Both the position numbers and the translations under genes were made by a program. This document shows positions 17,357 to 64,000 of a stretch of 64,000 nucleotides of DNA, piece by piece. Every line of letters begins with the position of its first letter. Position 1 is the stretch's first letter. The notes under the pieces are model-generated. The model saw nothing but the letters and a program-made list of their open reading frames with translations. It made no database searches and was not told the origin of the DNA. The stretch comes from Kiritimatiellia bacterium (GTDB taxonomy: Bacteria; Verrucomicrobiota; Kiritimatiellia; UBA8416; JAWODU01): assembly GCA_046483125.1 (NCBI GenBank), contig JAWODU010000019.1, forward strand, positions 1,911 to 65,910, given 5' to 3'.

Positions 17357-17362
17357 CTGTGA

Positions 17363-35791: not shown

Positions 35792-35821
35792 AGTCCAACT
35801 CCCTTCTTTTTTTCTCCCTGT

Positions 35822-36715: not shown

Positions 36716-36728
36716 AACTTAACTCCCG

Positions 36729-38128: not shown

Positions 38129-38976
38129 GTCCGGGATTCCGTCGAAGGCGTTTTGAGGGTGAAGTCCTCGGGAATTTCTCCGAACCTGACGAGACCTTCG
38201 ATAATTCCCGAAACATAGTAACCATTCAATTCGCCCATTCCCTCCGCCACCCGCAGGAGATGCTCCATGCCGTTTGAACGCATTGCCTCTTTCACGGCGG
38301 TTTTTACTTCGGGAATGGCGTTTCGCACTACTATGGCCCTGTACCCCGCCGTCAGGGGAAGCAGATCGTTCCCGCTGTCTCCGCAGTAAATAATTTCCTC
38401 TTTTTGAACTTTCATGGATCCCCGCAGGTATTCCAGAGCTTCAAGTTTACTGGCGGCGCGAGGCAGTACGTCCAGAAGACCCCGGCCCCTTGTTTCGTCG
38501 ACGCTGTAGATAACGCGGAAATCCGGACAGATCTCTCCAATAGCTTTCTTTACCGCTTCGACAGTATCGGACCCCTTTTCCGGATGGTCCAGGTAATAGC
38601 TCAATTTGAACTCGTTCTGATTCCGCGCTTCCTGGAGCCGGAGATCCGCCAGCGAGGCCAGGGCGTTTTTGAAAGCTTCGACGTCCCAGTTGCGCGTCGA
38701 TTCCTCGATTAAACGGATGTACCCTTTGTCTTCGGTGAACTCCCTTCCGTCCAGGTCGTATATTTTCGTGCCCACCTCCGCCACCGCGTACAGCGGCAGG
38801 GGAGGATCGTATTTTTCCATGCCTTCGAGTATCTGGTCGCGGTTGCGGCCGGTTACGTAAATCAGCGGAATTTCCCGTTTGCGGACGATTTCGCCGAACA
38901 GCCGCATGGAGTTATCGTATTCCTGTTTCCCGTTGGGGAAAAGGGTCCGGTCCAGGTCGGTGGCAATCACCGTCAT
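38125..38976 (-). CDS. HAD-IIB phosphatase, sucrose-6-phosphate-phosphatase-like
   Basis: 283 aa. DLDRTL (DxDxT) motif and an SPP-like cap. Translationally coupled to the flanking genes. Confidence 0.7.
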   Translation of the reverse strand: MTVIATDLDRTLFPNGKQEYDNSMRLFGEIVRKREIPLIYVTGRNRDQILEGMEKYDPPLPLYAVAEVGTKIYDLDGREFTEDKGYIRLIEESTRNWDVEAFKNALASLADLRLQEARNQNEFKLSYYLDHPEKGSDTVEAVKKAIGEICPDFRVIYSVDETRGRGLLDVLPRAASKLEALEYLRGSMKVQKEEIIYCGDSGNDLLPLTAGYRAIVVRNAIPEVKTAVKEAMRSNGMEHLLRVAEGMGELNGYYVSGIIEGLVRFGEIPEDFTLKTPSTESRT

Positions 38977-38991
38977 GGTTCGTTCCTCCGG

Positions 38992-41508: not shown

Positions 41509-41541
41509 TGTAACTGTGCTCCTTTCTGTTATCTCGTTTAC

Positions 41542-42993: not shown

Positions 42994-43003
42994 GGCGGGA
43001 CTG

Positions 43004-44293: not shown

Positions 44294-44302
44294 GATATAC
44301 TC

Positions 44303-45778: not shown

Positions 45779-45866
45779 GACTTCCCTTCTGTTTTCTTTT
45801 TTCGGAATAGGTCCCACGGTTGCCACAGCAGTTGCCATGCGCCCCGGCCGCGGAGACACGATCGCC

Positions 45867-48819: not shown

Positions 48820-49947
48820 TTACTTCTTTGCGGCTTCTTTTCTCGCCGCTTCCACTTCTCCCGCTATTTCCTTCAGCCGTTCCCGGATGGGCAGTTTCTG
48901 GGTGCATCTTTCCTCGCACTGCCCGCACTCGGTACAGCGGTCCAGGTAATCGTCTTCGAGCGATATTCCCCAGTGAAAACGCAGGCGGTTTAACGCCTGC
49001 CGCAGTTTGCCGCTCAGAATGTAATGATTGTACGCCTCCATGTACTTGGGTACCGGGATCCCTTCCGGGCAATCGTCGCAGTAACGACAGCTCGTGCACA
49101 TCGCGTCGAAAGAGTCGCTCAGGCTTCGGCGTATCCGGTCCACCTCCTTCTCCGGGATCGGGCGCATGCCTTCGACGGCGCTTACGGCCTCTTTGACCTG
49201 GTCCTCCGTGCTGAACCCGACCAGGGCCACGGTGATACGCGGATCGTTTATCAGGAATCTCAGGGCGCCTTCGACTACGCTCTCCTCTTCGCGCGTCTTG
49301 ACGAATGAAAACCGGTCCGCGTGCTCGGGAATAATGCCCCCGCCCAGCGGGTTCATCACCACCACGCCCATGCCGCGCTCCGCCGCGGCGGCGATTCCCG
49401 CTTCCCTGTAAGCGAAATTCATCGCGCAGTAACCGGCCAGCAGGCCGTCAAAAGGGTAATCGTTCACCATCTCAGTGATTTCGTTTCCCGACATGTGTGA
49501 AGAAACGCAGATATGCTTAATCAGGCCCTCGTCCCTGAACTTTTCCATTGCCTTCAGCACGCCCTTGTTTTTGCGGTTCGCGTAGTCTTCCGGCGTCAGC
49601 ACGCACCACACGTGATAGAAATCAATGTAGTCCAGGCCCATCCGTTCGAGCGAATTTTCAAGGTTGCGGCGCATTCCTTCCGCGTCCTTGGCCATTGTCT
49701 TCGTAGACACGTAAAACGGCTTTTCCCCGCGGGTCTTCTTCATTTCCTTGAACGCGGTGCCGTAAATATCCTCGGATTTCCCGTACCCCGGGGCGGTGTC
49801 GAAATAGTTGATTCCCGCGTCGTAAGCGGCCTTTACCACCGCCGCCCCCGCGTCCCAGTTGTCGTGGTCCGGAAAACGCATGCCCCCGAAACCTATGCTT
49901 GATACTTCCGGTCCGTTTGCCCCGTATTTACTGCATTTCATTGCCAT
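48820..49947 (-). CDS. Aldo/keto reductase with C-terminal Fe-S (ferredoxin-like) Cys cluster domain
   Basis: 375 aa with an AKR core (GINYFDTAPGYG) and C-terminal CTSCRYCDDCP...CTECGQCEERC. Confidence 0.8.
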   Translation of the reverse strand: MAMKCSKYGANGPEVSSIGFGGMRFPDHDNWDAGAAVVKAAYDAGINYFDTAPGYGKSEDIYGTAFKEMKKTRGEKPFYVSTKTMAKDAEGMRRNLENSLERMGLDYIDFYHVWCVLTPEDYANRKNKGVLKAMEKFRDEGLIKHICVSSHMSGNEITEMVNDYPFDGLLAGYCAMNFAYREAGIAAAAERGMGVVVMNPLGGGIIPEHADRFSFVKTREEESVVEGALRFLINDPRITVALVGFSTEDQVKEAVSAVEGMRPIPEKEVDRIRRSLSDSFDAMCTSCRYCDDCPEGIPVPKYMEAYNHYILSGKLRQALNRLRFHWGISLEDDYLDRCTECGQCEERCTQKLPIRERLKEIAGEVEAARKEAAKK

Positions 49948-50080: not shown

Positions 50081-50998
50081 CTACGCGTCGGGGAGGAAGC
50101 GCTTGAGCACCTGGAGGTCCTCTTCCTTCCTGTAGCTGAACGCCCACACGATGAGCTGGTTATTCTGCTTCTCGACCCTGCAGTGCACCTTCAGTTTGAA
50201 ACACCACCGGCTGATCTCGTCGCGGTGCGCTATCACATGCGGGGCCCTTCTCCGCCACAGTATCTCGCCGTTCTTCCCGGGCCTGAACACTATGCCGGGG
50301 AACCCGCGGAAGGTGTTGAGGTAGCCTGTTACCCACTCTTCCATTGATTTGTCCCCTTTAAGGAACCGGTCCGCGCAGGAGAAATGCCAGAGGTGGAACC
50401 GGCGCATCTTCCAGCGGAAAATCATGAGTTTCGAACCGATGTCGAACTTGGTGTTTTCGAGAAGAAAGTCATGGGGCACCTCAAAAGAAATGTCGTAAAG
50501 CTGCCACGGCACCAGCCCCGCCTCATTGTGCTTTATGAAGTCCGAAGAAAGCACCTTCATTATCTTAACGGGGCTTTCCCTGTCGCCAGGCATGAAATGC
50601 ACAAAGAAACAGCCCACCAGTGTTGATCGCGGGCAGAGATAAAAAGCAGTCACCAGGCTGTGTTCCACGGCGCTGAGCTCTTTTTTGTTACTTCGGGTGG
50701 GAAGGGTTTCGCGCATAATGTACTGCGTGGCGTGCCAGTCCGGAGGAAGTCCGGATATGCGTTTCGTGCGGCTGGCGCGCATCGTGAGCTTGCGCGTGGA
50801 TTTTTCGTAACGATCCAGAATCTGTTTGGGCGTGATTTTCCTGCCGGGCCTTATCCATTCCGCCTCCATGCGAACCGCGTACTCGTCTTCCAGCTCCAGG
50901 CGCGTAACTCCTTTTTTAAGGAACCTGTAGAGCGCGACTTCCCAGTTCTCCGGCACCAGAAAAGACACTCTGTCCCAGGAAATCCGGCGGGTATTCAT
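50081..50998 (-). CDS. Hypothetical soluble protein, last gene of the novel membrane-protein operon
   Basis: 305 aa with no TM helix and no recognisable family. Lies 15 nt downstream of the 985-aa membrane-protein gene. Confidence 0.5.
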   Translation of the reverse strand: MNTRRISWDRVSFLVPENWEVALYRFLKKGVTRLELEDEYAVRMEAEWIRPGRKITPKQILDRYEKSTRKLTMRASRTKRISGLPPDWHATQYIMRETLPTRSNKKELSAVEHSLVTAFYLCPRSTLVGCFFVHFMPGDRESPVKIMKVLSSDFIKHNEAGLVPWQLYDISFEVPHDFLLENTKFDIGSKLMIFRWKMRRFHLWHFSCADRFLKGDKSMEEWVTGYLNTFRGFPGIVFRPGKNGEILWRRRAPHVIAHRDEISRWCFKLKVHCRVEKQNNQLIVWAFSYRKEEDLQVLKRFLPDA

Positions 50999-51013
50999 CG
51001 GGTTTGCCGTTTG

Positions 51014-53971
51014 TCAGAACCTGTTGAGGGTCACGCCGAACAGGCACATGAAAAGTTCACCCAGTATCAATCCGATAAACATGGCGCGAAACTGGGCGTA
51101 GGTCCGGTTGTCGCCGTACTTGCTGACCATCGTCTTGAACAGCCAGCCCAGCAGAATGGAAAACCAGTACTGCCACATCAGCGGGTTGACCCACATTATC
51201 AGGCCGATAGGGTGCGGAAGCCAGAAAACGCGCTGGCGCAAGAATATCAGCGCCCCCATCACGATAACGCCGGTAAGAAGCCAGTACTTGCCGCCGGCCA
51301 CGTCCGTGGGCTCACTCTGGGCCATGTTTTTGATCTCGCTGAATATGTCCGTAAGGGCGGTGCTGTAGAACCACCCATGCATTCCGTCGGCCCCGTTTTT
51401 GTATCCCAGAATAATGTGAGTGGCAATGGCAACGACGGTGGCCGCCAGAATGCCGAATGCCACCGCGGTGTGGAACCTGAGGCGTCCCATTTTCACGTTG
51501 TCCCTCACCTTGAGCGCGTTGGCCATGGCCGGGGCTATGAAAGCCTTTATGTCCCAGAAGAAAATATACAGGTAGCACACCAGCGGAGCCAGAAGCGGAG
51601 CGGCGGTCCAGGCCTTGTTCATGCCGACAACGTGCCTGATAAGGTGAAACGGTCCGAAGAAACACTGGAATCCCAGCAGGCCCCCCTCCGTCACCGCCCT
51701 GACCAGCCCGATCGTGATAACCAGCACTACCAGGTAAACGAAAATGGAAAAGTAGATGTTGGCGCCCAGCCCCCAGGTCAGCACTCCTACCAGCCCCGCG
51801 GAACAGAAAACAAAGAGAAAGGACGAAATCCTGAGTTCCGTGCGCTCCGGCTTCTCCAGTTCGGAGACGGCCCCGGGCCTGAACGCGCAGAAAAGGTACT
51901 GGCGGCATTTCCACAATATCACCGCGGCGAACGCGGTGAGGGCGCCTCCGCCTATGGCGGTACGGAAATTCAGGAGCGAAGTCATGCCCTTGGGAAAGGA
52001 ATTCAGGTTTTCCCCGTAGCCCATCCACACCAGCACGAGCGTCAGGACCATGAAAACAAGATGAAAGAACCAGAGGGAAAAGGATATCTTTGCCGGAATC
52101 AGGAAGGTGAGACCTACCAGCGTAAAAATTATCTGATGGTGGGCGTTAGGTAAGAGCCCCGCAAACGGGCTGTTCTGAATGTACGGCGTCCAGTCATACC
52201 TGAGAGCTATATCACCCGCTCCGGGAATAATCTGCTTTGTGGCCAGCAGGTTCCACCCCATAACCCCTATGGATATCGCCGCACCCGTCCAGAACATTCC
52301 GTTTCTGTAAAGCGCCGGTACCCGTCCGCCGTTCTCGTCGTAGGCGCCGCTGAGATAAGTGGGCAGTTCCGCCAGAGGATAGATCAATTTCTCGTTATAG
52401 GCCCACTGGCGGAATATCAGGACGTTAAACGTCATGAGCACCGTATAGGTAAGGAGAATCACCACCGCCCACTTCGCGAGAGGGCCGACCCACTTTTTCC
52501 ACGGCACGTTACCGGCCGCGAAAGTGCGCAGGTCGCCGTCGAAAGTCCTGAACGCGGCCATTTCCGATTCGATCTTTTCGACAAGAGCGGGGCAACCCCC
52601 GGGCACCGCCGTTTCGGACTCGGCCGAAAGTTCCTCAAGGTTTTCCATGGTCTCGGCAACGACCCCGGCGGTCGCCAGGGACGGTTTCACTTTGCGGTCC
52701 AGTCTGGAGTTAAGCGATTCAAGATTTTTCTTCTTCTTGTCTACCCACTTCTGTACTTTCTTTATTCTCCTGGTAAGCTCTTCGGCAGTTTCGTCCATTG
52801 CGTACCGTCTCTGCTCCCTGAGCAGTCTCAAGTGCTTTTCTTCGTCCCCTATCTCCTCGCGCAGGTTGTTTATTTTCGCTTCCAGGTCCGCCTGGCGCTC
52901 TTCAAGTTCGGGAAGACCTGCCAATGGTTCAAGCATTCCGGCGGCTTCGGCAATCAATGCCGCCGCCTCTTTGCCCGTCCGGGGCCCTGAACTGTCTTCA
53001 AGCATGCTGCGGGCCTTTTCCAGCAACTCGAGCGAGTCGGTGCCGCGGCTGAAACGGCGTACGCGGTACATGTACGAGTGAAGTCCCTCTCCGGGATCGT
53101 ATATGAACCCGGGCACAGCCCGCAGTTCGCCCGGAAGGCCCCTGCGGAATTGCTCCACGGTTTCAAAAGTGCCGGCCTTTGCCTCGGCCAGTTCCCCGGC
53201 GCGTTCGTCCTTTGTCTCCTGAAGTAACCGGATTTTTTCCGGAAAAGTATCCAGGACTTTCCCGCGGTTGTACTCGCCTTCGTATTCTTTCCAGGCTTCG
53301 CGCGCCCTCTCCAGCGCCTGCCTGATTACCAAAACCTGGTGTCTCAGCGGCTCCGCCCGAAGCGTTCTTTCTTTCTCGTCGGGAATCTTCTCGAGTTCGT
53401 GAAGTTTCGCGGTGACTTCTTCGAGATTTTCCGCCGCCGCCTGCACGTTCGCGGCGGCGCGGTATACCTTCTTTGCCCTGTCCCACTTGAGTTCAGCGTC
53501 CCTTGCCTCGATGGCGGCCTCGCGGATCCCGTCCTCGGCCACGAAGAAGTCGTCGTTGACGTAAGGTTCCACGTAAAGGTCCCAGCGGGACTGCATATTG
53601 TTCCAGTCCGGGTTGAATAGGCCCGAGGTAAGCGGCACGAGCTGTGAAGCCAGCCCGAAAGTGGAAACCCCGCCCGAAACAGCCCCCATAACAAAAACTA
53701 TGAGGAGTTCGGTTGGTGTGAACCTGCGTATGAAGCGGACAAATTTCAGCAGTGGGTTAATCAGCACTACTCCAACGGCAAGCAATATGTAAGGCAGGAC
53801 CGCAATCTGAGTAGAGGTGATGATGTGGCCCGGCACGTTCTCCTGATACACGGTGTACCAGGCAAAAAGACCCGCGAAGATCATGCCCAGCAGAAAGGAC
53901 CGCAGTGTTATGCGGTTCCTCTTCGGCTCCTCGCCCCATTTCCCGGATTTATCTTTCACACCATTACTCAT
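51014..53971 (-). CDS. Large polytopic membrane protein (985 aa) with a roughly 350-aa coiled-coil insertion, paralogue of 54113-56122
   Basis: More than 12 predicted TM helices. The E/K/R-rich heptad-like insert lies between TM helices. The C-terminus VSKYGDNRTYAQFRAMFIGLILGELFMCLFG is homologous to the C-terminus of the upstream paralogue. Confidence 0.6.
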   Translation of the reverse strand: MSNGVKDKSGKWGEEPKRNRITLRSFLLGMIFAGLFAWYTVYQENVPGHIITSTQIAVLPYILLAVGVVLINPLLKFVRFIRRFTPTELLIVFVMGAVSGGVSTFGLASQLVPLTSGLFNPDWNNMQSRWDLYVEPYVNDDFFVAEDGIREAAIEARDAELKWDRAKKVYRAAANVQAAAENLEEVTAKLHELEKIPDEKERTLRAEPLRHQVLVIRQALERAREAWKEYEGEYNRGKVLDTFPEKIRLLQETKDERAGELAEAKAGTFETVEQFRRGLPGELRAVPGFIYDPGEGLHSYMYRVRRFSRGTDSLELLEKARSMLEDSSGPRTGKEAAALIAEAAGMLEPLAGLPELEERQADLEAKINNLREEIGDEEKHLRLLREQRRYAMDETAEELTRRIKKVQKWVDKKKKNLESLNSRLDRKVKPSLATAGVVAETMENLEELSAESETAVPGGCPALVEKIESEMAAFRTFDGDLRTFAAGNVPWKKWVGPLAKWAVVILLTYTVLMTFNVLIFRQWAYNEKLIYPLAELPTYLSGAYDENGGRVPALYRNGMFWTGAAISIGVMGWNLLATKQIIPGAGDIALRYDWTPYIQNSPFAGLLPNAHHQIIFTLVGLTFLIPAKISFSLWFFHLVFMVLTLVLVWMGYGENLNSFPKGMTSLLNFRTAIGGGALTAFAAVILWKCRQYLFCAFRPGAVSELEKPERTELRISSFLFVFCSAGLVGVLTWGLGANIYFSIFVYLVVLVITIGLVRAVTEGGLLGFQCFFGPFHLIRHVVGMNKAWTAAPLLAPLVCYLYIFFWDIKAFIAPAMANALKVRDNVKMGRLRFHTAVAFGILAATVVAIATHIILGYKNGADGMHGWFYSTALTDIFSEIKNMAQSEPTDVAGGKYWLLTGVIVMGALIFLRQRVFWLPHPIGLIMWVNPLMWQYWFSILLGWLFKTMVSKYGDNRTYAQFRAMFIGLILGELFMCLFGVTLNRF

Positions 53972-53984
53972 TGCAGTATTCAGT

Positions 53985-54110
53985 ACACGGTACCGTTCCC
54001 CTGAACCGCCCAGCCTCCCTCTTGCTCCCCATCCTGTTGATCCTGTCTGAAATTCCCCTCTTCTCTCTTCCTCTCCTCCGTGCCTCCGTGGTTCAATTCT
54101 CCCCTCCGCC
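53985..54110. repeat. Intergenic repeat element (copy E) with two 9-bp tandem repeats (54031-54052) and a CT-rich tract
   Basis: atcctgttgatcctgtctgaaa and cttcctctcctccgtgcctccgt match the elements at 7976-8006, 15651-15676 and 14101-14130. Confidence 0.6.
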
Positions 54111-54112
54111 GC

Positions 54113-56122
54113 CTACCACGGCGTCGGACTCAACATCCTGGATATCACGTTAAAAGACAACGCTATCATGGACGTCAGTCCCAACCCGCATCCAAACCCC
54201 GCCATGATCGCCGTCATGTACTTGAGCCACATGTCCTTGTACTTGCGCTTGAAATGAAAACGCGCCACGGCCGCGCCCAGCATCGTGCAGAAAACCGCAC
54301 CCGGGTTGCTCTGCGCCAGCCCCCATACCGCCCCGAATATAAGCATTATGGGCATTCCCACGGCCGAAAGGATCGCAAAAAGCGACGAACCCGATATGAA
54401 ACCCCATAGCGCGTAGTCCAGGTTCATGGCCTCCAGGAACTGCGATCCTCCCTCCTGCGTGGCGGTAATCATAACCGCCCAGTTTCTCAGCTTAAGCGGC
54501 CACATCTTCTGCGTGTACGGATACGCCCCGGAAGGCACCTCCGCCATCCGCCAGAGAATCTCGGAGGTCAGGAAAGAGGCTATAAGTATAATGGGAACCG
54601 TAAGAATAAGTGTCTTGACCTGGCTCTTGATCTTGGTCCCGGTCAGTTCCAGAACACGAAAACCCACCGTTTCAGAGCCGAGGTTCTGTATGGGCATGGG
54701 CACGAACCATATGTCCGTCCCCTTGTATCCGGTGAGTATAATGGTCAACTCCTTCAGGTACGGTATGTTTACCGCCCGCCCGCATATGCCTTCCAGCTTG
54801 GCGGTGGCATACGAGATAAGAGGCGTGTACAGAAGGGCGTAGAACGTCATGATCTTCCACGGATAGCTGTTGCCTATCAGGAAGACGCCCAGCAACACCC
54901 AGGAAAAGGTACTGAACAGGTATATGAACAGGGCAACGAAAATTGAAAAATCACCCCTCGCGGCGTTGCCCATCACAAGCGTTCGCCAGGTTTCCCTGGC
55001 GCGCCGGCCGAAGCTCTTGGTGTGAGTCAGTTCCCTCGACCGGGGCCTCACGGCGTTTTTCACCGTTGTGGTCAGAAACACCACGAGCTGGCTGAATGTA
55101 ACCGCAAGGGTCAACCCGATACCGAAAGCGAGGTAAAAATCAATGTGGTTGGAAAACTGCGCGTTGACGAAACCCATCTCCGGACGCCAGGTCGTCAGTA
55201 TTCCGGCCTCGTAAAGCAGGGGATTCGCCACCCAGGTCATTACCAGCCCCACGAACGCCCCCACCACGCTCCAGAACGGCACTATCATGCCTACCATGAA
55301 AGCGGCAAAATCGAGTTTCAGGTTAAAGGGAACCGCGGGAAGCACGCGCCCGATCTGCTGTGTGTAATCTATGAAAATCATCGGGATGAGTTCTATGCGC
55401 TTGGGAAGCACCGCCTGGGTTATCATCGGAACGCAGATGTAAAGCAGGCCCCATATCATTCCCAGTACGCCCCCTATGGAGAAACACCGCCAGCGCCACG
55501 TCGTCTCTTCGCCCCTGTCGGTGGAAAGGGCCACTATTCCCGCGGCCCCCACGGGCGCGAACGGGAAAGGCAGTCTTTCCACGTCGTTTACCATCCGGTA
55601 CAGGACGTACCCGAGACCGTAGTTGTCTATCCGGGTTATGAAAATGCGGAACATGGTGATGCCGATAACCGGAAGCCAGGCCAGGCTGAAAAGCGTCCGT
55701 CCGGCGCTTTGTATATCGGCGGCACGCGGGAAAGCCCACGTCGGCAGATCAACCAGGCCCAGCCCCTGAATGTATTCGGACTGCGCGACGTACTGCTTGA
55801 ACAGGAAACCGGCGAAGGGATCGGCCAGCACCGCCCCGGCCATGAAATGAAGCGTATAGAGTTCCTGGCTCTTAAGCGTGGTGAACGAACGCTTGGCAAT
55901 CTCGGCGAAGAGAATCACAAGCACCCATTTCATGGCGTTTCCGATCTGGGCGTCGTTGCCTATCACGAGCACGAGGTAATCGGTGGCCGGGTTGACTATG
56001 AACCCGAGCAGGATGGCGCCCACTACCGTCTTCCAGCTGAAACCGTCCCGGAACTCCGTGATGTCCGGGGGTTTCATAATGTCCCGGTACTCGTTGAGTT
56101 CCTTGTCGTCAACCCATGACAT
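54113..56122 (-). CDS. Large polytopic membrane protein (669 aa), paralogue of 51014-53971
   Basis: About 14 predicted TM helices. N- and C-terminal blocks align with the 985-aa protein (FMAGAVLADPFAGFL versus MGAVSGGVSTFGL; KRKYKDMWLKYMTAIMAGFGCGLG versus VSKYGDNRTYAQFRAMFIGLILGE). Confidence 0.6.
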   Translation of the reverse strand: MSWVDDKELNEYRDIMKPPDITEFRDGFSWKTVVGAILLGFIVNPATDYLVLVIGNDAQIGNAMKWVLVILFAEIAKRSFTTLKSQELYTLHFMAGAVLADPFAGFLFKQYVAQSEYIQGLGLVDLPTWAFPRAADIQSAGRTLFSLAWLPVIGITMFRIFITRIDNYGLGYVLYRMVNDVERLPFPFAPVGAAGIVALSTDRGEETTWRWRCFSIGGVLGMIWGLLYICVPMITQAVLPKRIELIPMIFIDYTQQIGRVLPAVPFNLKLDFAAFMVGMIVPFWSVVGAFVGLVMTWVANPLLYEAGILTTWRPEMGFVNAQFSNHIDFYLAFGIGLTLAVTFSQLVVFLTTTVKNAVRPRSRELTHTKSFGRRARETWRTLVMGNAARGDFSIFVALFIYLFSTFSWVLLGVFLIGNSYPWKIMTFYALLYTPLISYATAKLEGICGRAVNIPYLKELTIILTGYKGTDIWFVPMPIQNLGSETVGFRVLELTGTKIKSQVKTLILTVPIILIASFLTSEILWRMAEVPSGAYPYTQKMWPLKLRNWAVMITATQEGGSQFLEAMNLDYALWGFISGSSLFAILSAVGMPIMLIFGAVWGLAQSNPGAVFCTMLGAAVARFHFKRKYKDMWLKYMTAIMAGFGCGLGLTSMIALSFNVISRMLSPTPW

Positions 56123-56126
56123 GGTC

Positions 56127-59100
56127 TTATTCCTCTTTTCCGGAGAAAAGCTTTTCGCTTTCCTTAACGTACCAGCTGTGCTGTGTGGGGTCTATATTCC
56201 GCCACCGCATCAGGGCTTTTCTCATCCTCTGCAGGAACGGTCTGTTCGTGGTGGCCCAGTTGGTGTCCTGGCCGGAAACACGGTAAATGTCCATATACAG
56301 CCTGTAGCTTTCCACCGTTTCGTCGTAGCGGGCGTTGAATATGACCTTCTGGGTCACGCCAAGGTCAAAAGGCGCCAGCGCTACCGAGTATTCCAGGGTG
56401 TAGGCAGGACGTCCTGAATCATCCTTACTTTTATGTATTCTTTTACATGAAGCTATAAGATCGCCTATGGACTGCTCGGTAAAGTCGGAAAAATACTCGT
56501 AAAGGTAATACACGACGCCCGCGGCCAGCTCCAGCTGGTAAATAAAGGGAAACGCAACGTGCATTTTCTCTCCGTCGTTGTCGGGGAGCGACCACTTCCG
56601 GCGTCCCGAAGGCACCGCCGTGCGCGTCGCGACGTAAGCGGGGTACACCGTCGAAAGCAGAACCAGTCCCACGGTAAACAGAATGGCCCACACCACGATA
56701 AGCGAGGAGAAGTTTATGTTTATTCCCTGAATAAGACCCGCGGACTTCACCGCTATCGCCCCGATCTGGCCTATAAGGTACCCGCCTATGGCGCCGATGA
56801 AACTGTACACAAGGGCCTCGGCCAGGAAAAACGTGAAAATGTGCAGGGGGTTCAGGCCTATGGCGTTGTAAACGGCTATCTCCGAACGCCGCTCATACAC
56901 GGTCCCCAGCATCGTGTTGAAAATAATCAGCCCCGCTATCAGAAGGGGTATTACAAGTCTTGATACCCCGCCTATGGTGGTCCTGTAACTGCTCCCCACG
57001 TAGTAAACCCCCTGGTCCGTGTCCTGCTCGGCGTCTTCCCCGAGCCTGAACGGTTCCCGGCTCCCCAAGAAGAACTTCGCCCCGGTTATGCCCAGCAGAA
57101 AGTCCGCGGCCTCCCACAGCGCGGTGTCGCTACGTTCCTCTTTTCTTGTCCGGAGCCTTATGGAAACCGTGTAGGGGTCCGCGTCCATGTCTTCGGCAAG
57201 TTCCGCGGGCAGGAGTACCAGCGAAGCCATATCTATTGTGGACATCCCAACGTAGTCGGTATCGGATTCTTCAACCCCCTGGGATTTCTGCTGTGCCTCG
57301 GCTGCCTTTTCCTGAAACGGAACCAGGGGAAGCTTCGGATCCAGGTCCCGCAGAGCGCGGTACCTGCTGTCGTCAAGGATACCCGCCACCTTCAGGTCCC
57401 GGCCAAGGAACCGGACGTACGTTTCCCCGGCGTCATCCGGATGGAGCCCCAGCGCCTCGGCCATGGCCGCGGTTATTATGATTTCCTCCGCGCACGGCCC
57501 CGAAAAGAACTCACCGCCCAGAAGAGGAAACGGGCCCAGGAAATACCTGTCTTCCTGAGGCAGGCCCACTACCGCTTTCACGTCGACATTCTGCGCTTCT
57601 TCGCCCGCGAGATCGAGCCTCCAAGTAATGCGCGCATCCTTGGCGCCCCTCGGCGGCAGTTTGATCCTGCGGACAAGTACCTGGGCTTTCCCGGTAAAGA
57701 GCGTGTTAAAAACTTCCGCGGTGGCCTCGTCCATGGATTTACCGCCGGGAGCGCGGTAAAAGAGTCCCGTATAGGGGCTGTTTTCGGACTTCGATATGAG
57801 GGTCGGCTTCGCCTTCCTGGATACGCTGGAAAATGCCAGCATGGTGAATACCACCAGCACGATGGTTCCCGTGGTCAGCGAGGTGCGCACCCTGCGGCGC
57901 TTCATGTTGTTTACGCCGATAATCATCGCCGTCTGTCCCACGGTTCCGTAAGCCACGTCGAATTCCATACTGCCGGAGGTCTTGAACAGAAGTTCCATTT
58001 CGGTCTGGAACCGCTTCTTCAGAACCCAGGCTATAAACAATCCCATGGCTCCCAGAACGAAGGCTATGAATATGGCCTCTGCGTTCATTGCTATGGCAAA
58101 CGCCGGGTGGATAAAGCGGAACCCGACGTATGTGACCAGAAACAGGAGTGTAAATGCCCCCAGTTCGTGCTGAAGCTTGGTGAAATTGAAAATCAGCTTC
58201 TGAAGAAAATAACAGAACGGCACCATCATCGCCATGTACAGCATGATCGCCTTGAGCATGTCCGCGTTCATGCCCCTTATCTGGGAGTACGCCTTCACTT
58301 CCGCGCCCAGCGCCCCGTAAAGCGCGAGAAGGTATCCGGTGTGGTCCCGCTGGGCTTTTTCGGCTTCCATTCGATTGAGGGCGGATTTTCCCTTTTCAAG
58401 AAAAGTATCCAGGAGTTCGTTGGCGACGCCCTTCATTTCGTTCTTGCGGTAACGGTTGAGTTTGTCCATGTCCCGCGCCGCGACGGCGAAGAAATCCGCT
58501 CCAAGCTCTTCGGCGTTTTTATATCCGTAACCCCCCGGCTCCTTTTCCTTGGGATTGAGCGCGCACCTTTTATTTCCGGTAAGCAGGAGCAGGCGGTCTT
58601 CATGGAATCCCTCCTGCTTTTTCTTCCACAGGTAAACCGCCACCGGCCCCGTGGAAACATGGCTTTTCGCGGGCGAAAGTGAAATCGCCCCGTGCACCCC
58701 GTATTCCTCCGGCTCCGACTGCATCTGGGCGCTCTTGGGCCACCATTGATCAACTTTAACCTGGGAGCTTCCCGCCAGGGTCGGATCCTTGCGGGTATAA
58801 ACCGGGAACTCCCTGCATGGGAACATGGGCAGGGTGGTACTCGGCCCGGGCACTATGTTGCTGGTAATTTCTTCGGATTCCTGGACCCGTCCCTTGTCGA
58901 TGGTGTGGGTGACTTTTCTGAAACCTTCGCCCATGCGGTATGCCGTGGAACAAAGCTGGCCGTCATTGAGGCCGTAAATGTACGTGGAGCCGCTTATGTC
59001 GGTAATAGCCGGGTAGCAGTTGACGACGTCACCGTCAACAAGCGGAGGAACAAGCGTGTTCCCGCCGGGATAAAGGGTCACCATACAGCCGGGCACCGGA

Positions 59101-61511
59101 AGATCCGGACTGCCCTGCGAAGAGAACTCGTCGATGGCGTAGGTGCGGACCAGCGTTGACCACAGCCAGTACTGGTGCTTTCGTTCGACCTTTCCGATGG
59201 TGTCCGGAGAAGCCAGTACGGGCTCGTCTATCAGCCGGGGAAGGTAGCGGCTCAGCCATTCCATGTTCCGTTCCGCCGTGTCTGAATCCAGTCTTTCGGC
59301 CGTGTCCGCCGGGCTGAATGCGGCCCCCTCGTTCACAAACACTCCTTTAAGGGCCATCGCCGGTGTCCGGCCCGAATGGAACACCGCCGAGGGTGATTCC
59401 CATCCCGGGAAAAAACGTTTCTGGCTCTTGCCCGCGGCTCCGCCCAGGGTTTCCAGGAACGGACTTTTCTCTGTTCCCGTTTCTTCGTCTATCTCGCCGG
59501 CGACACGCAGGCACAGGTTCCCCAGCCCCCTTTCCCAGTCGGTGGTAACGTTGGGGTCCAGGGAACAGAAACCCGCCTGCTCCGCGCGCCAGTTCATGTC
59601 CAGGTTTATAACCAGGGCCACCTGCCGCATCTGGAGGGCTTCGCGCAGATTGTCATTCGATGTATCAAGCGACAGCACCTCTTCTTTTTTCCGCTCGAAC
59701 TCCCCGAACCTCTCGACCAGCGTGTCCCGGTAATCCTTCAGAATGTTCCTGTGGATATCGCTGAGCGCGATTTCACGGTAGCGCACCTTGCTTCGTCCGA
59801 TGCCCACGTCAATTTTGTTGAAAAGCCTCAATACTTTTGCCAGATCATCTTTTCTTTTTATGGCTTTTTTCCGCAGATCTTCCAGGCGCTCATCATCCAT
59901 ATCTTCCACGCGGGCTAAATCAAGAAGGCGCAGTTTCGACATGTTGAGTTCACGCTTGGCCTTTGTCTGGAGCTTGTCCTTGACCGGAAGCCTTTTCCCC
60001 GTGCTGGCGTCCATCTCGCTGCGCCATTCCTCCAGGAGTTTTTCGTCGTCGAACACCGTCTTCGCCCGCCTGAGAAGGATGAATATTTTCTCGGCGGGCC
60101 ATTGCTTCATTTCCTCGACGTGACGCCGGTCCTTTTTGAGCATCCGGATCGCCTCGCTGTCCGTGGAAAACATGGCCAGAAATCCGCCGGCTTCTTTGGA
60201 CAGTTCCTCGACTACACGGTCTATTGCGGCATAAACGTCTTCGGCGTCGAACTCGGAAAGATCAAGCTTCCAGTCTATTTCCGGCACCGGCTGAAGTTCG
60301 ATCTCCGAGGTGTCTTTTTCCTGATCCTCCAGCCGCTCAAGTTCGTTTCTTCTTTCCTCGAGCAGTTTCTCGTGCTCGGCTTCGCGTTTTTCCTGCTGGA
60401 TCTCGTCAAGTCTGCCCATGATTTCCACGGCGGCGTAAAGGTCCGAAGCCGGTATGTCCACCGGTTCGAGCTTGAGCAGGCTGTACTTATCGTGAAAAAG
60501 CCTGGCTATCCGCATTTCCGTGCCGATGGAGTCTCTGAATTTGGCGATATCTTTCATACCGGCCAGAAGGTGCCATGCCAGGACGCGCTCTCCCCGGAAG
60601 TTCTGAGTATGGGCGTTCACGGCGCAGAGCAGGACCGTCCGGGCCGGCGGCTCCCGGCGAAGTTTTTCGAGAATCTCCAGCAGAAGGCAGAGGTTTCCCG
60701 CCCCCTGGGCGCCCCAGGACCTGTCGGGCACCGCGGAGGCGGCGTCCAGCGGGGCGGTAATCACCACCACTTCCCGTCCGAGGTCAGGGTCGTTTCCCGG
60801 TATCAATACCCAGGGGCTTTCGAGCACGCTGTTGGTCCAGATCGATGGAGAAGAATGGACCCGGCATTCGAGTTCGCCGCCGCCTTCCCCGCACAGTTCC
60901 CGGAGCACAAGCCCGTCCGAATGCGTAAGGAAAAACCGGGGAAATCCGACTTCGGTATTGTAAATCTTGGACAGGGAATCTTTGTACTGGTACCTGCCCT
61001 CGCCCAGCCCCATGAAGATAACACCCGCCGGATTAAACCTCAGAAGGTCCAGCCACGCGCCGCCGCAGTCGTAATCCATAAGGAAAAAAGCCCGGTCCAG
61101 TTCAATTCCGTTCACCGCCTTCAGGTCCCGGTACCCGCCCTTACGAAGGTCCACGAGACGGGTTGTTACGGTATCGCGAGGCAGGTTCCCGGGCCGCATG
61201 AGAGTGGGATGCATTACCGACAGGTTCACAGGGAGGGCGCCTTCGGCTTCAAGCCGCCCGCTCCCCGGCTCAAAGACCGGGGCTGTGAACCGGATTACCC
61301 CGTTGGTGAACCCGGAATCCGCGAAAACGCCCGCGACTTCCCGCTGAAGAGCGAGATTCCCCTTCATTCCCGGAGCGCGGGGCTGTGCGGAAATGCTCTC
61401 CATGTCGGCGGAGAACCCCGCAAAAGCCGCGGAGACGCCCTGCAGAAGTGCAATGGAACACAACCATGAAAAACAGCGGACCACCGCTGATCCTGCCCGG
61501 CCTGAATGCAC
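56127..61511 (-). CDS. Giant (1794 aa) MacB/FtsX-type permease fusion with a roughly 1000-aa N-terminal PA/M28-like ectodomain (catalytic residues not conserved) and a coiled-coil region
   Basis: N-terminal signal anchor. PA-like (GIELDRAFFLMDYDCGGAWLDLLRFNPAGVIFMG) and M28-like (VVVITAPLDAAS...GAQGAGN) segments lack the His/Asp/Glu zinc ligands. The C-terminal half holds TM clusters and the FtsX hallmark ERRSEIAVYNAIGL followed by three TM helices, with a MacB-like periplasmic domain between TM helices. Confidence 0.65.
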   Translation of the reverse strand: MHSGRAGSAVVRCFSWLCSIALLQGVSAAFAGFSADMESISAQPRAPGMKGNLALQREVAGVFADSGFTNGVIRFTAPVFEPGSGRLEAEGALPVNLSVMHPTLMRPGNLPRDTVTTRLVDLRKGGYRDLKAVNGIELDRAFFLMDYDCGGAWLDLLRFNPAGVIFMGLGEGRYQYKDSLSKIYNTEVGFPRFFLTHSDGLVLRELCGEGGGELECRVHSSPSIWTNSVLESPWVLIPGNDPDLGREVVVITAPLDAASAVPDRSWGAQGAGNLCLLLEILEKLRREPPARTVLLCAVNAHTQNFRGERVLAWHLLAGMKDIAKFRDSIGTEMRIARLFHDKYSLLKLEPVDIPASDLYAAVEIMGRLDEIQQEKREAEHEKLLEERRNELERLEDQEKDTSEIELQPVPEIDWKLDLSEFDAEDVYAAIDRVVEELSKEAGGFLAMFSTDSEAIRMLKKDRRHVEEMKQWPAEKIFILLRRAKTVFDDEKLLEEWRSEMDASTGKRLPVKDKLQTKAKRELNMSKLRLLDLARVEDMDDERLEDLRKKAIKRKDDLAKVLRLFNKIDVGIGRSKVRYREIALSDIHRNILKDYRDTLVERFGEFERKKEEVLSLDTSNDNLREALQMRQVALVINLDMNWRAEQAGFCSLDPNVTTDWERGLGNLCLRVAGEIDEETGTEKSPFLETLGGAAGKSQKRFFPGWESPSAVFHSGRTPAMALKGVFVNEGAAFSPADTAERLDSDTAERNMEWLSRYLPRLIDEPVLASPDTIGKVERKHQYWLWSTLVRTYAIDEFSSQGSPDLPVPGCMVTLYPGGNTLVPPLVDGDVVNCYPAITDISGSTYIYGLNDGQLCSTAYRMGEGFRKVTHTIDKGRVQESEEITSNIVPGPSTTLPMFPCREFPVYTRKDPTLAGSSQVKVDQWWPKSAQMQSEPEEYGVHGAISLSPAKSHVSTGPVAVYLWKKKQEGFHEDRLLLLTGNKRCALNPKEKEPGGYGYKNAEELGADFFAVAARDMDKLNRYRKNEMKGVANELLDTFLEKGKSALNRMEAEKAQRDHTGYLLALYGALGAEVKAYSQIRGMNADMLKAIMLYMAMMVPFCYFLQKLIFNFTKLQHELGAFTLLFLVTYVGFRFIHPAFAIAMNAEAIFIAFVLGAMGLFIAWVLKKRFQTEMELLFKTSGSMEFDVAYGTVGQTAMIIGVNNMKRRRVRTSLTTGTIVLVVFTMLAFSSVSRKAKPTLISKSENSPYTGLFYRAPGGKSMDEATAEVFNTLFTGKAQVLVRRIKLPPRGAKDARITWRLDLAGEEAQNVDVKAVVGLPQEDRYFLGPFPLLGGEFFSGPCAEEIIITAAMAEALGLHPDDAGETYVRFLGRDLKVAGILDDSRYRALRDLDPKLPLVPFQEKAAEAQQKSQGVEESDTDYVGMSTIDMASLVLLPAELAEDMDADPYTVSIRLRTRKEERSDTALWEAADFLLGITGAKFFLGSREPFRLGEDAEQDTDQGVYYVGSSYRTTIGGVSRLVIPLLIAGLIIFNTMLGTVYERRSEIAVYNAIGLNPLHIFTFFLAEALVYSFIGAIGGYLIGQIGAIAVKSAGLIQGININFSSLIVVWAILFTVGLVLLSTVYPAYVATRTAVPSGRRKWSLPDNDGEKMHVAFPFIYQLELAAGVVYYLYEYFSDFTEQSIGDLIASCKRIHKSKDDSGRPAYTLEYSVALAPFDLGVTQKVIFNARYDETVESYRLYMDIYRVSGQDTNWATTNRPFLQRMRKALMRWRNIDPTQHSWYVKESEKLFSGKEE

Positions 61512-61553
61512 TGTGCCCCCTATCCGATTTACGCCCGGCGGCGCGTCCCCTGC

Positions 61554-61943
61554 TTATCCGGCAGCCGTTTCTTCCCGTTTCAGCATGACGCTCACCAGAT
61601 TGCGTTTCATGAGTATTTTTATGAAGGCCACGACCCCGAGTTCCGATTCCCGGTAGCTCATGCCGAACTGCTTCTGAAAAGCGCGGATTATCTCAAGAAC
61701 GGTTCGTTCGTGATCTATGTTATCCACTACAAAACTACCGAATTCATCCAGCTCAAACCGCTTGTTTATGACCCGCGGCCGGAATCTTTCGAGAAAATGG
61801 TTCCGCCTGGTTTCCCTGATTTTAACACTGGACAAGCCTGAATCGGCCTTCTCGATTTTGACATTGTCCGAAATCACGGGCACCCCGGCCAGGGCGGCGC
61901 GGCGATCGATGCTGTTTCTGTGCCTTTTCCAGAATAAAGACAT
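61554..61943 (-). CDS. PqqD-family (RiPP recognition element-like) small protein, first gene of the minus-strand operon
   Basis: 129 aa. The C-terminal segment LDEFGSFVVDNIDHERTVLEIIRAFQKQFGMSYRESELGVVAFIKILMKRNLV fits the PqqD/RRE winged-helix pattern. Ends 42 nt upstream of the giant permease gene. Confidence 0.5.
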   Translation of the reverse strand: MSLFWKRHRNSIDRRAALAGVPVISDNVKIEKADSGLSSVKIRETRRNHFLERFRPRVINKRFELDEFGSFVVDNIDHERTVLEIIRAFQKQFGMSYRESELGVVAFIKILMKRNLVSVMLKREETAAG

Positions 61944-62083
61944 TCTTTGAGTTCCCCCGGCCGCGGCTCCGGCGGTTTTTTCTTGCCGCCCTGTTGCCGG
62001 GGCCCTATTAGAAACTTGCCCGGTTGAGTAATTCCATGATATATGAAGTTTTCCTGGGTCAGGTCAAGACGGATTCGAGACTA

Positions 62084-62842
62084 ATGGAAACAGCGGCAAC
62101 AAAAGACATAGTAATTCGCGCCCTTGGCGTAAAGCGCTACTACGGTGAGGGGGAAAACCTCACCAAAGCCCTCGACGGCGTAAGTCTGAACATCTACAGG
62201 GGTGAATATCTTTCGATTATGGGGCCTTCGGGATCCGGTAAAAGCACGCTTTTCAACATGATCGGCGGCATAGATTCGCCCACCGAAGGCATGGTGTTCA
62301 TTGACGAAATCGACGTGGCACAGCTCGATTCCTTTGAACTTGCCTGGATGCGCTGTCACAAAATCGGCTACATATTCCAGACCTACAATATACTTCCGGT
62401 GCTGACAGCGCTGGAAAACGTTACTTTGCCCATGACGTTCGCGGGGCTTTCACCGGACGAAGCCAGGGAAAAAGGGCGTGAAATCCTGCGGATCGTCGGT
62501 CTCGGCGACAGGGTCTTTCACCGCCCCTTCGAGCTTTCGGGCGGTCAACAGCAGAGGGTAGCCGTGGCAAGGGCCATAGCCAACGATCCGGTCATCGTTC
62601 TTGCCGACGAACCGACCGCCAACCTGGACGTGGACACCGGCCAGGAAATCATTGATCTCCTGGCCAAACTCAAGGAAGAGCGGGGAATGACCGTGATTTC
62701 GGCGACTCACGACATGAAGATGCTCGATATCTCCGACCGGATACTCTGGATAAGAGACGGACGCGTCCAGAGGCTGGAGGACCGCAGGAATCTGGACATC
62801 AACGTGGGCGGCATCGGGGGCAGATCAAAGCAGGCAGTCTGA
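62084..62842 (+). CDS. ABC transporter ATP-binding protein (MacB/LolD-type)
   Basis: Walker A GPSGSGKST, signature LSGGQQQRV and Walker B LADEPT. Likely start at the ATG at 62084 (METAATKDIVIRALGV); the track ORF starts at 62024. Confidence 0.85.
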   Translation: METAATKDIVIRALGVKRYYGEGENLTKALDGVSLNIYRGEYLSIMGPSGSGKSTLFNMIGGIDSPTEGMVFIDEIDVAQLDSFELAWMRCHKIGYIFQTYNILPVLTALENVTLPMTFAGLSPDEAREKGREILRIVGLGDRVFHRPFELSGGQQQRVAVARAIANDPVIVLADEPTANLDVDTGQEIIDLLAKLKEERGMTVISATHDMKMLDISDRILWIRDGRVQRLEDRRNLDINVGGIGGRSKQAV

Positions 62843-62855
62843 AAGGAAAACCATC

Positions 62856-63557
62856 TTGGCCGACACAGCAACAGCCAGTCGCGCCGCCGCTCCCGCCGGC
62901 GGCCTCAAGGGAACCATTCCCGAACAGTCCCCTCTGCCGTGGAACATGATCTGCCGGGTGGCGTCCGCCGGAATGAAGCGCCGCATGACGCGCTCCGTTA
63001 TGAGCATATCCATTGTCGTTCTGGCAATCGCCTTCGTGGCCTACATGCTGATTATAGACAACATTACCGTGTCCCTCGTAGCCGTGCGCGACAGTCGTCT
63101 TGCCGTACTGCTCCAGGAGAAAGGGGTCGAGGTATACGGCCGCACCGGAACGGATGAGATGACGGTTCTGCTGATAAGTCTGGCACTGCTTACCTGTACC
63201 GTGGGGATAGTAAACTCCATGCTGATGTCGGTAACCGAGCGGGTCCGTGAAATAGGAACGCTCAAATGCCTCGGCGCCAGGGACCTGTTCATCGTGAAAA
63301 CCTATTTTGTGGAAGCCACACTGCAGGGCATATTCGGCTCCATCTGCGGGATGGTTCTAGGGGTGCTGGTCGCGGTACTCGTCTCCATGACCGATTACCC
63401 CGGTTACGTTCTGCCCAACCTGCCGTACGGGACCATAGGGCGCTCGCTCCTGCTGGCCTTTCTCGCGGGTCTTGTTATATCGGTGATAGCGGCCATAGCC
63501 CCGGCCTATGCCGCCGCCCGCAAACAGCCCGTTGACGCGCTCAGGGTTGAAGAATGA
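62856..63557 (+). CDS. Minimal FtsX-family ABC permease (233 aa, 4 TM, no large periplasmic domain)
   Basis: TERVREIGTLKCLGA FtsX hallmark, with one TM helix before it and three after it. Confidence 0.7.
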   Translation: MADTATASRAAAPAGGLKGTIPEQSPLPWNMICRVASAGMKRRMTRSVMSISIVVLAIAFVAYMLIIDNITVSLVAVRDSRLAVLLQEKGVEVYGRTGTDEMTVLLISLALLTCTVGIVNSMLMSVTERVREIGTLKCLGARDLFIVKTYFVEATLQGIFGSICGMVLGVLVAVLVSMTDYPGYVLPNLPYGTIGRSLLLAFLAGLVISVIAAIAPAYAAARKQPVDALRVEE

Positions 63558-64000
63558 CAGACAACGCTCTCATATCGGTACGCGACGTCGCCAAGGTTTA
63601 CCGCATGGGCGACGAGGAAGTGCACGCCCTGCGGAACATTACCGCCGACATAGCCCGCGGCGAATACGTATCCATCATGGGGCCTTCCGGCTCGGGAAAA
63701 TCCACTCTCTTCAACATGATCGGCGGTCTGGACACTCCAAGCGGCGGTGAAGTTGTCGTGGACGGATGGAAACTGGCGGACCTCAACTCCGACCAGCTCG
63801 CGTGGTTCAGGAACCGCAACATCGGCTTCATTTTTCAGAACTTCAACCTGGTGCCCACAATGACCGCCGCCGAAAACGTGGCCATTGCCAGGATGTTTAC
63901 CGGTGTTTCCGCTCACGAGGCCAACGAAGCCGCCGGCCGGGTCCTGGAAAAAGTCGGGCTGGGGCACCGTCTCCATCACCTTCCCGGGGAAGTGTCCGGA
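63554..64000 (+). CDS. Second ABC transporter ATP-binding protein (MacB-type), 3' partial at window end
   Basis: Its ATG overlaps the permease stop (ATGA). Walker A GPSGSGKST. The frame is open to the end of the window. Confidence 0.85.
   Translation, partial: MTDNALISVRDVAKVYRMGDEEVHALRNITADIARGEYVSIMGPSGSGKSTLFNMIGGLDTPSGGEVVVDGWKLADLNSDQLAWFRNRNIGFIFQNFNLVPTMTAAENVAIARMFTGVSAHEANEAAGRVLEKVGLGHRLHHLPGEVSG

Follow-up and report, generated by a model that had tools for sequence, protein, structure and literature searches.

The last ~14 kb (50,081-64,000) of the 64,000-nucleotide stretch of the Kiritimatiellia bacterium contig JAWODU010000019.1 analysed here (hereafter the window) encode what appears to be an undescribed multi-component membrane system. 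Its components are a giant permease of 1794 aa, which we call BIG, a polytopic permease (F669), a second polytopic membrane protein with DUF6785 and DUF6784 domains, a small FtsX permease with its ATP-binding cassette (ABC) ATPases, and two cytoplasmic proteins, one of them related to PqqD and to the recognition elements (RREs) of ribosomally synthesized and post-translationally modified peptides (RiPPs), the other (F305) having a tandem Mog1/PsbP-like fold. Because this gene set is kept through rearrangements and PqqD and BIG are fused in some genomes, there is strong evidence that it constitutes one functional unit, made of a five-component core and two cytoplasmic accessories (PqqD and F305). 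The combination, which the initial annotation had not recognized as any described system, is strongly conserved, and our full-text literature searches found no paper on DUF6785/DUF6784 or on the association of PqqD, FtsX and OPT proteins. The genes occupy the following positions of the window:

61554..61943, minus strand: PqqD/RRE-like small cytoplasmic protein, 129 aa (Pfam PqqD)
56127..61511, minus strand: giant permease BIG, 1794 aa (Pfam FtsX, full-length homologues, PDB profile matches)
54113..56122, minus strand: F669, polytopic permease of OPT/YSL fold, 669 aa, the component with the highest conservation
51014..53971, minus strand: DUF6785+DUF6784 polytopic membrane protein, 985 aa (Pfam)
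50081..50998, minus strand: F305, cytoplasmic protein with a tandem Mog1/PsbP-like fold, 305 aa
62024..62842, plus strand: ABC ATPase 1, of the type of LolD and the MacB nucleotide-binding domain (Pfam ABC_tran, E=4e-32)
62856..63557, plus strand: small FtsX permease, 233 aa (Pfam FtsX, E=2e-21, residues 105-225)
63554..64000, plus strand: 5' part of ABC ATPase 2, which runs off the window end (Pfam ABC_tran, E=7e-21)

Relatives of F669 were found in at least 555 species genomes (one genome scanned per species) of Planctomycetes-Verrucomicrobia-Chlamydiae (PVC) bacteria and Desulfobacterota, with Oligosphaera ethanolica, Desulfatibacillum alkenivorans, and Desulfacinum hydrothermale among the cultured carriers. 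Hidden Markov models of seven components were searched against the open reading frames (ORFs) of the loci fetched around these relatives, 35 of which had full 10-kb flanks. In these fully flanked loci, the partners of F669 were present as follows:

DUF6785 protein: 35 of 35
BIG: 34 of 35
ABC ATPase(s): 32 of 35
small FtsX permease: 31 of 35
PqqD: 26 of 35, plus 3 in which it is fused
F305: 24 of 35

The architecture is conserved far above chance and in three or four gene orders within two groups of phylum rank, the set being retained across Kiritimatiellia, Lentisphaeria, Planctomycetota, Verrucomicrobiota, and Desulfobacterota despite rearrangement:

Arrangement A, window clade: ATPase-FtsX-ATPase, plus PqqD-BIG-F669-DUF6785-F305
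Arrangement B, Lentisphaeria and others: ATPase1-PqqD-BIG-F669-DUF6785-FtsX-ATPase2(-F305)
Arrangement C, Desulfobacterota: FtsX-ATPase-BIG-DUF6785-F669-F305-PqqD
Arrangement D, locus L087: DUF6785-BIG-F669-FtsX-ATPase, without PqqD or F305

The ORFs of the initial annotation are all present where it had placed them, and their positions agree with its description of an FtsX permease gene flanked by two ABC ATPase genes and divergent from the main operon. The five minus-strand genes form a tight operon, with intergenic gaps of 42, 4, 141, and 15 nt in the order 129-1794-669-985-305 aa, and ~140 nt of intergenic DNA lie between it and the divergent ATPase-FtsX-ATPase genes, where the true start of ATPase 1 is likely the ATG at 62085 and the ATG of ATPase 2 overlaps the stop codon of the small FtsX gene by 4 nt. 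The annotation had also expected the operon to run on past the window end; judged from the syntenic locus L002, merely the 3' part of ATPase 2 is missing and nothing further follows on that strand. It is highly improbable that this locus simply juxtaposes two unrelated transport systems, an ABC/FtsX efflux pump and proton-driven OPT-type peptide importers. Although each type of module is known to work alone in other organisms and the ATPase operon of the window is a separate, divergent transcription unit, the adjacency has been kept through at least four gene orders in distant phyla (with co-occurrence in 34-35 of 35 loci), the genes overlap or lie a few nucleotides apart, and F305 and this PqqD subfamily practically never occur outside the cluster.

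For BIG we found 41 full-length homologues (1530-1960 aa) in Kiritimatiellae, Verrucomicrobia, Lentisphaerae, Planctomycetes, and Desulfovibrionales. Hydropathy reveals eight hydrophobic segments (the N-terminal one at residues 13-31, three in 1085-1164, one at 1212-1230, and three in 1513-1611), and the protein is laid out as an N-terminal transmembrane (TM) or signal segment, a periplasmic ectodomain of ~1050 aa, a novel 3-TM block, one canonical MacB-type FtsX unit, and a C-terminal cytoplasmic domain. Its regions map to the window as follows:

60522..61418, minus strand: residues 32-330, N-terminal part of the PA/M28 aminopeptidase-like ectodomain, predicted to be catalytically dead (family profile against PDB)
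59592..60524, minus strand: residues ~330-640, charged helical, coiled-coil-like insert within the M28-like domain
58020..58259, minus strand: residues 1085-1164, conserved 3-TM block
56610..57899, minus strand: residues ~1205-1634, canonical type VII ABC permease unit (TM1, periplasmic domain, FtsX TM2-4)
56130..56609, minus strand: residues 1635-1794, conserved cytoplasmic C-terminal domain

A profile built from 28 members of the BIG family and searched against PDB sequences matched, over residues 32-326, the PA-M28 aminopeptidase 2ek8 (E=1e-10) and YwaD (6hc6, E=1e-6), and gave weak matches to nicalin and nicastrin. The M28 metal-binding and catalytic positions are changed in the window clade from His to Ala ('TAPLDA'), from Asp-Asp to Gln-Gly/Ser ('QG'), and from Glu-Glu to His-Thr ('HT'), and a distant clade has mostly lost them too. 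The BIG protein of the window has by itself no Pfam M28 match; its Desulfatibacillum orthologue matches Pfam Peptidase_M28 above threshold (E=3e-11) and PA weakly. These comparisons confirm the degenerate PA/M28 ectodomain that had been proposed for this protein, that is, an aminopeptidase fold stripped of its metal ligands and presumably inactive. The domain is interrupted by the insert at residues ~330-640, which has ~43% E+K+R+D, heptad-like stretches and no Pfam family, and downstream of which a motif like that of the M28 C-terminal part ('F.P.DT...LD') resumes.

The C-terminal TM region of BIG is related to type VII ABC permeases, as the family profile matches MacB (5lil, E=1.5e-10), LolC (E=1e-8), and also YtrF; the homologues P0014 and P0041 carry the MacB_PCD domain, and the FtsX block aligns with the small FtsX permease with an hhalign probability of 97.7%. 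BIG had first been read as a tandem FtsX permease, a reading that has to be revised: it contains a single Pfam FtsX domain (residues 1521-1631, E=2e-13) within a single canonical unit (~1212-1631), and the block at 1085-1164 is not FtsX-like (hhalign probability 0.2%, no Pfam match). Pfam searches on sub-segments together with hhalign gave no second FtsX unit, and BIG scores 29 bits with the model for ADOP-type tandem FtsX permeases, whose cut-off is 622. The 3-TM block has its own invariant residues (Y1092, P1098, F1099, H1135, P1136, A1137, and F1138). The 160-residue C-terminal domain, for which we found no Pfam or PDB sequence match, is conserved from PVC bacteria to Desulfobacterota with invariant P, F, D, G, W, and R positions.

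The 3-TM block and the FtsX unit together (residues 1085-1634; 56610-58259) match the PADLOC model PDLC01991, 'CARF_m8--CARF_LolE_TM', with 141 bits (E=7.5e-42). The match covers the TM core of the model (positions 65-591, of which 65-209 correspond to the 3-TM block) and leaves its C-terminal CARF part of ~220 positions (~591-810) unmatched. The same core of BIG also matches a PADLOC model of 1791 positions, 'CARF_Beta-galactosidase_LolE_TM', and the two matches together point to a wider LolE-like family with a common 7-TM core and differing ecto- and cytoplasmic domains. We considered and rejected a role in defence, as the PADLOC matches are confined to this generic TM core and to ABC ATPase similarity.

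The PDLC01991 family, which joins the 3-TM+FtsX core to a cytoplasmic sensor domain, raises the question of whether the cluster could be a sensor or regulatory device, with an ectodomain sensing a periplasmic cue, the ABC engine and the BIG C-terminal domain transmitting it, PqqD and F305 acting as adaptors, and the OPT-like proteins being regulated. FtsX transporters of the BceAB type are known sensors. Moreover, in ~17 Desulfobacterota loci (including L040, L044, L048, L051, and L066) a partner-switching set made of a STAS anti-sigma antagonist, an RsbW-like HATPase_c_2 kinase, and a cNMP-binding protein is encoded downstream of PqqD, joined in ~6 of these loci by a dCache-HAMP-SpoIIE phosphatase. 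Nevertheless, we consider such a device very unlikely: BIG lacks a match to the very CARF part that would do the sensing in that family, the partner-switching genes are absent from the PVC loci, and the core has neither a transcription factor nor a kinase as a conserved partner.

F669 has the OPT/YSL elevator-transporter fold, known from iron/peptide transporters of plants and comprising the YS-core plus scaffold. It matches Pfam OPT (PF03169) along most of the profile (positions 129-619 of 623; E=2.5e-4) with 20.3 bits, under the cut-off of 25.8, and several of its close homologues carry precomputed PF03169 matches. Its sequence identity across phyla is 43%, and its cytoplasmic N-terminal tail (residues 1-32; 56029-56122, minus strand) contains a motif, 'DDKEL.EYR.[LI][ML]..P....F.[DE]GF.WK[TA]', that is near-invariant from Kiritimatiellia to Desulfobacterota. 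This motif has diverged in L006, the sole locus without DUF6785, PqqD, and F305, and the tail may be a docking peptide for the PqqD/RRE-like protein. At that same, distant locus (14601-24596), the genes that come after BIG and F669 encode a 577-aa protein without family assignment, a SecDF-P1-head protein, a secretin, and large TPR proteins, a neighbourhood that hints at an outer-membrane partner in some lineages. In L044 (15251-15835), as in 17 other Desulfobacterota loci, a conserved ORF of ~200 aa without Pfam family lies between F669 and F305 and could encode an additional component specific to that lineage.

The 985-aa protein matches Pfam DUF6785 with 237.2 bits (E=4e-70) and DUF6784 with 67 bits (E=2e-18), as do 28 of the 28 orthologues tested for both families. 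It is in this protein that the coiled-coil insert noted in one of the two membrane proteins resides: a charged helical segment of ~370 aa (~residues 120-490), rich in E, K, R, L, and A, which follows TM3, is predicted to be periplasmic, and has weak matches to SMC-type coiled coils at residues 343-453. The insert is variable in the family, being replaced at the same position by Laminin_G_3 and DUF2341 domains in L002 and absent from the Desulfobacterota proteins (657-680 aa). By contrast, the paralogy of the 669-aa and 985-aa proteins, which the initial annotation had stated, is unproven at the sequence level. BLASTP found nothing between the 985-aa protein and F669, and two hhalign runs against F669/OPT were negative (profile-profile probability 0.3-0.5%); the sole hint of a link with OPT is that 1 of 28 DUF6785 family members matches OPT positions 2-92 with 26.0 bits, just over the 25.8 cut-off.

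The 129-aa protein belongs to the PqqD family as initially annotated, matching Pfam PqqD (PF05402) with 25.7 bits against a gathering cut-off of 23.4 (residues 62-117, profile positions 12-67 of 67), and its orthologues have precomputed PF05402 matches. It fails all NCBIfam PqqD equivalogs (22.4 against 80 bits for lasso_PqqD_Bac, 20.6 against 46 for PQQ_PqqD). In most loci the PqqD gene adjoins that of BIG, and in ~9 of the 41 BIG homologues it is fused to the BIG N-terminus; such fusions occur in L010, L011, and L014 and in P0017-P0027. The fused proteins run from PqqD through a short linker into a hydrophobic segment, which places PqqD in the cytoplasm and makes the segment its membrane anchor. 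F305, also cytoplasmic, is a non-enzymatic protein with a tandem Mog1/PsbP-like fold. As had been noted from the sequence, it has no known family (no Pfam or NCBIfam match), and none of its 503 representatives is fused to another domain.

A PqqD domain normally evokes RiPP biosynthesis, so that the cluster could serve the export of, or immunity to, a ribosomal peptide encoded elsewhere, the tethered RRE binding its leader, the permeases carrying it across the inner membrane, and the MacB-like unit expelling it from the periplasm. Besides the RRE, permease-fused in some genomes, this would fit with the known export of peptides such as the enterotoxin STII by MacB-family pumps, and with the frequent proximity, in the Desulfobacterota neighbourhoods, of an ABC_membrane+ABC_tran protein of ~840 aa of the peptide-exporter type. 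The ATPase domain of this exporter is split by an insert of ~250 aa, and in L041, L044, L052, and L075 its gene lies inside the cluster on the same strand. However, the observation that the PqqD locus contains no radical SAM enzyme, cyclase, or other modifying enzyme stands for the operon of the window, and no such family recurs in the flanks of 80 loci; the locus is not a RiPP cluster. The small ORFs in the gaps of the window look like noise, and clustering of the 2322 small ORFs from all loci yielded no conserved precursor-like candidate within or close to the gene clusters, the groups obtained being shadow ORFs of flanking genes. Since, in addition, the clusters have neither a membrane-fusion protein nor an outer-membrane channel as a conserved companion, OPT/YSL proteins are known to act in import, and the conservation of F669 between phyla is unusual for the transport of a secondary metabolite, we regard RiPP export as rather improbable.

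ATPase 1 has intact Walker A, LSGGQ signature, and Walker B motifs; orthologues of ATPase 2, always encoded directly after the small FtsX gene, have a VSGGQ signature and likewise intact motifs. PVC bacteria have two ATPase paralogues and Desulfobacterota one. The small FtsX permease has ~35 residues separating TM1 and TM2 and no periplasmic domain. These proteins and BIG fail by a wide margin the equivalog cut-offs of the known systems, which speaks against the known LolCDE/MacAB-type cluster that would have overturned the initial reading: ATPase 1 reaches 214.6 of the 307.75 bits needed for the NCBIfam LolD equivalog, BIG and the small FtsX 15.1 and 55.7 of the 362 for lolCE, and 17.6 and 26.7, respectively, of the 255 for FtsX_Gneg, whereas the scores were 196.7 against 264.85 for FtsE and 18 against 966 for the NCBIfam MacB equivalog. 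A MacA/HlyD membrane-fusion adaptor is absent from the recurrent neighbour families of the 80 loci, and no EnvC- or PcsB-like hydrolase activator, peptidoglycan hydrolase, or LolA-like chaperone is conserved near the clusters.

These absences bear on a further possibility, that of an envelope-remodelling or glycoconjugate/lipid machine in which the engine, working at the outer face of the inner membrane like LolCDE and FtsEX, would extract or present an envelope component such as a glycolipid, a lipoprotein, or an intermediate of a polysaccharide. The polytopic proteins would then serve as a flippase or as a scaffold, and the periplasm would be reached by the dead peptidase domain and by the coiled-coil and LamG inserts. 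Known type VII systems such as LolCDE and FtsEX do act on envelope substrates. In Desulfobacterota, immediately upstream of the small FtsX gene (L004, 1850-8237; L088, 2379-8461), a packed operon with overlapping stop and start codons encodes GT28-C, GT4, GT4, His_Phos_1, GT28-C, and a DUF2334-like protein, and such an operon occupies this position in 10-15 loci. The variability of the periplasmic inserts (a coiled coil in the window, Laminin_G_3 and DUF2341 in L002) and the SecDF-head, secretin, and TPR proteins that follow BIG and F669 in L006 would also be compatible with it. Yet both neighbourhoods are missing from the PVC loci, glycosyltransferase genes being absent from all of them, the window included. 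Neither a hydrolase, an activator, a chaperone, nor a membrane-fusion protein accompanies the clusters, and such pathways are not known to involve an OPT fold or an RRE domain. An envelope machine of this kind thus seems unlikely to us.

We tentatively favour a dedicated inner-membrane machine that couples a LolCDE-like type VII ABC engine to one or more OPT-type permeases and handles a peptide-like cargo; we are less confident about the direction of transport. In such a machine, the FtsX unit of BIG and the small FtsX permease would pair as a LolC/LolE-like heterodimer driven by two nucleotide-binding domains, as in the 'mechanotransmission' engines of type VII ABC systems. In arrangement B the ATPase 1 gene adjoins those of PqqD and BIG and the ATPase 2 gene adjoins that of the small FtsX; the single ATPase of Desulfobacterota would serve both permease subunits. 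ATP hydrolysis may move the giant periplasmic arm (dead peptidase domain plus coiled coil), which could be a binding or gating module comparable to nicastrin and nicalin, and the engine would act jointly with F669 and the DUF6785 protein. The cytoplasmic face would offer docking sites to the PqqD/RRE-like protein and to the Mog1/PsbP-like F305, one of them possibly the invariant N-terminal tail of F669. As aminopeptidase-like, OPT, and RRE modules are all peptide-handling folds, the cargo is most likely a peptide or peptide-like molecule. Capture might take place in the periplasm and passage through the OPT-type permease, and on the cytoplasmic side the RRE might receive or regulate the cargo.

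Several points weigh against this proposal. The contacts between subunits are ones that we infer, and the argument from peptide-handling folds is a thematic one. The DUF6785 protein is not demonstrably OPT-like, given the one member matching 92 OPT positions and the negative hhalign results. About one in four of the fully flanked loci lacks PqqD and F305, as does arrangement D, so that both appear dispensable to the core. OPT transporters are proton-driven and need no ABC partner. MacB-type permeases have, to our knowledge, no transmembrane substrate path, which makes the logic of coupling engine and permease speculative. Finally, a glycosyltransferase operon immediately precedes the cluster in Desulfobacterota, which speaks for glycoconjugates and not for peptides.

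A bolder version of the same proposal, possible but on the whole doubtful, is that the cluster represents a new class of envelope machine, in which a LolCDE-like mechanotransmitter would be physically coupled to OPT-fold elevator permeases for ATP-gated peptide capture and translocation, and a membrane-tethered RRE would have been recruited as an integral adaptor, perhaps one that clamps the OPT-like subunit by its invariant N-terminal tail. If the subunits do form one complex, it would widen the range of things that type VII ABC engines can drive, and would offer a first example both of an RRE at work beyond peptide biosynthesis and of such an ABC/secondary-transporter hybrid. The use of an RRE outside RiPP pathways would in turn bear on genome-mining tools that take RREs as RiPP markers. 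The system occurs in hundreds of species of environmental and gut-relevant anaerobes (Kiritimatiellia, Lentisphaeria, Planctomycetota, and Desulfobacterota), each copy amounting to ~14 kb of coding sequence and including one of the largest membrane proteins of the genomes that carry it. It is directly testable in cultured carriers: Maridesulfovibrio sp. (CP182345), Desulfatibacillum alkenivorans DSM 16219, Desulfacinum hydrothermale DSM 13146, and Oligosphaera ethanolica DSM 24202.

Outside the system, the next minus-strand gene (49947..48820) encodes an aldo-keto reductase that carries an Fe-S domain; it has no conserved association with the cluster. Between 47 and 64 kb of the window no Rfam match to a riboswitch or other RNA was obtained, and a promoter/terminator scan gave nothing beyond shuffled expectation. 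Two proteins reported as 100% identical to window proteins (P0042 and P0162) are annotated in a Kiritimatiellia metagenome-assembled genome as 'peptide transporter' and 'hypothetical protein R6V03_01140'. Further away, positions 34328-47333 (minus strand) look, from translations read by eye, like an osmolyte/compatible-solute cluster unrelated to the membrane system, with glycine-betaine-type ABC uptake genes (substrate-binding protein, permease, and ATPase), two sucrose-phosphate-synthase-like glycosyltransferases plus a HAD phosphatase, a methyltransferase, and two MttB-like methyltransferases. In the region 19857-22400, a tRNA gene (19857-19929, minus strand; Rfam 71 bits) is followed by a stretch of ~2.4 kb of low G+C content (48% against ~58% elsewhere) with short ORFs only, which may be the remnant of an integrated element.

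Among known systems, the closest likeness is with the type VII ABC systems MacB, LolCDE, FtsEX, and YtrEF. BIG shares with them a 4-TM unit of FtsX type whose TM1 and TM2 flank a periplasmic domain, and the cluster has LolD/MacB-like ATPases with intact motifs, a probable heterodimer of unlike permeases (as LolC and LolE), and a large periplasmic element that cytoplasmic ATP hydrolysis could move. It differs from them in that one permease partner lacks any periplasmic domain, in the additions that BIG presents (the ~1050-aa ectodomain, the 3-TM block, and the C-terminal cytoplasmic domain), and in having no MacA-type adaptor, LolA-type chaperone, or EnvC-type activator. We know of no obligate OPT-fold or DUF6785 partners in that class. 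The PDLC01991 family likewise has the 3-TM block, a periplasmic domain, and the FtsX unit, whereas it lacks the giant ectodomain, its CARF part is unmatched, and the cluster has no defence context.

Compared with OPT/YSL transporters such as barley Yellow Stripe 1 (PDB 7wsr), F669 has only 13% identity, stays under the Pfam cut-off, carries the conserved cytoplasmic N-terminal tail motif, and is always encoded with an ABC engine. The PqqD-like protein resembles RREs such as PqqD and lasso-peptide B1 in being small and cytoplasmic, in its Pfam domain, and in occurring free or fused to a partner, but that partner is a membrane permease and no precursor peptide, radical SAM enzyme, B2 protease, or cyclase is found nearby. 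Like nicastrin and nicalin, BIG has an M28-type fold devoid of zinc ligands on the non-cytoplasmic side of a putative multi-pass membrane complex; it has in addition a PA domain and the ~300-aa coiled-coil insert, and since its domain resembles bacterial PA-M28 aminopeptidases, the likeness with nicastrin is an analogy rather than an established homology. F305, with less than 13% identity to Mog1/PsbP-like proteins (Mog1, PsbP, TplEi, LpqN, DcrB, and the Eag chaperones), is a cytoplasmic member of a new family, without Pfam model and restricted to this system. By analogy, the whole would work most like a type VII ABC mechanotransmission system with unprecedented partners, namely an OPT-fold permease, a DUF6785 protein, a tethered RRE, and a Mog1/PsbP-like adaptor.

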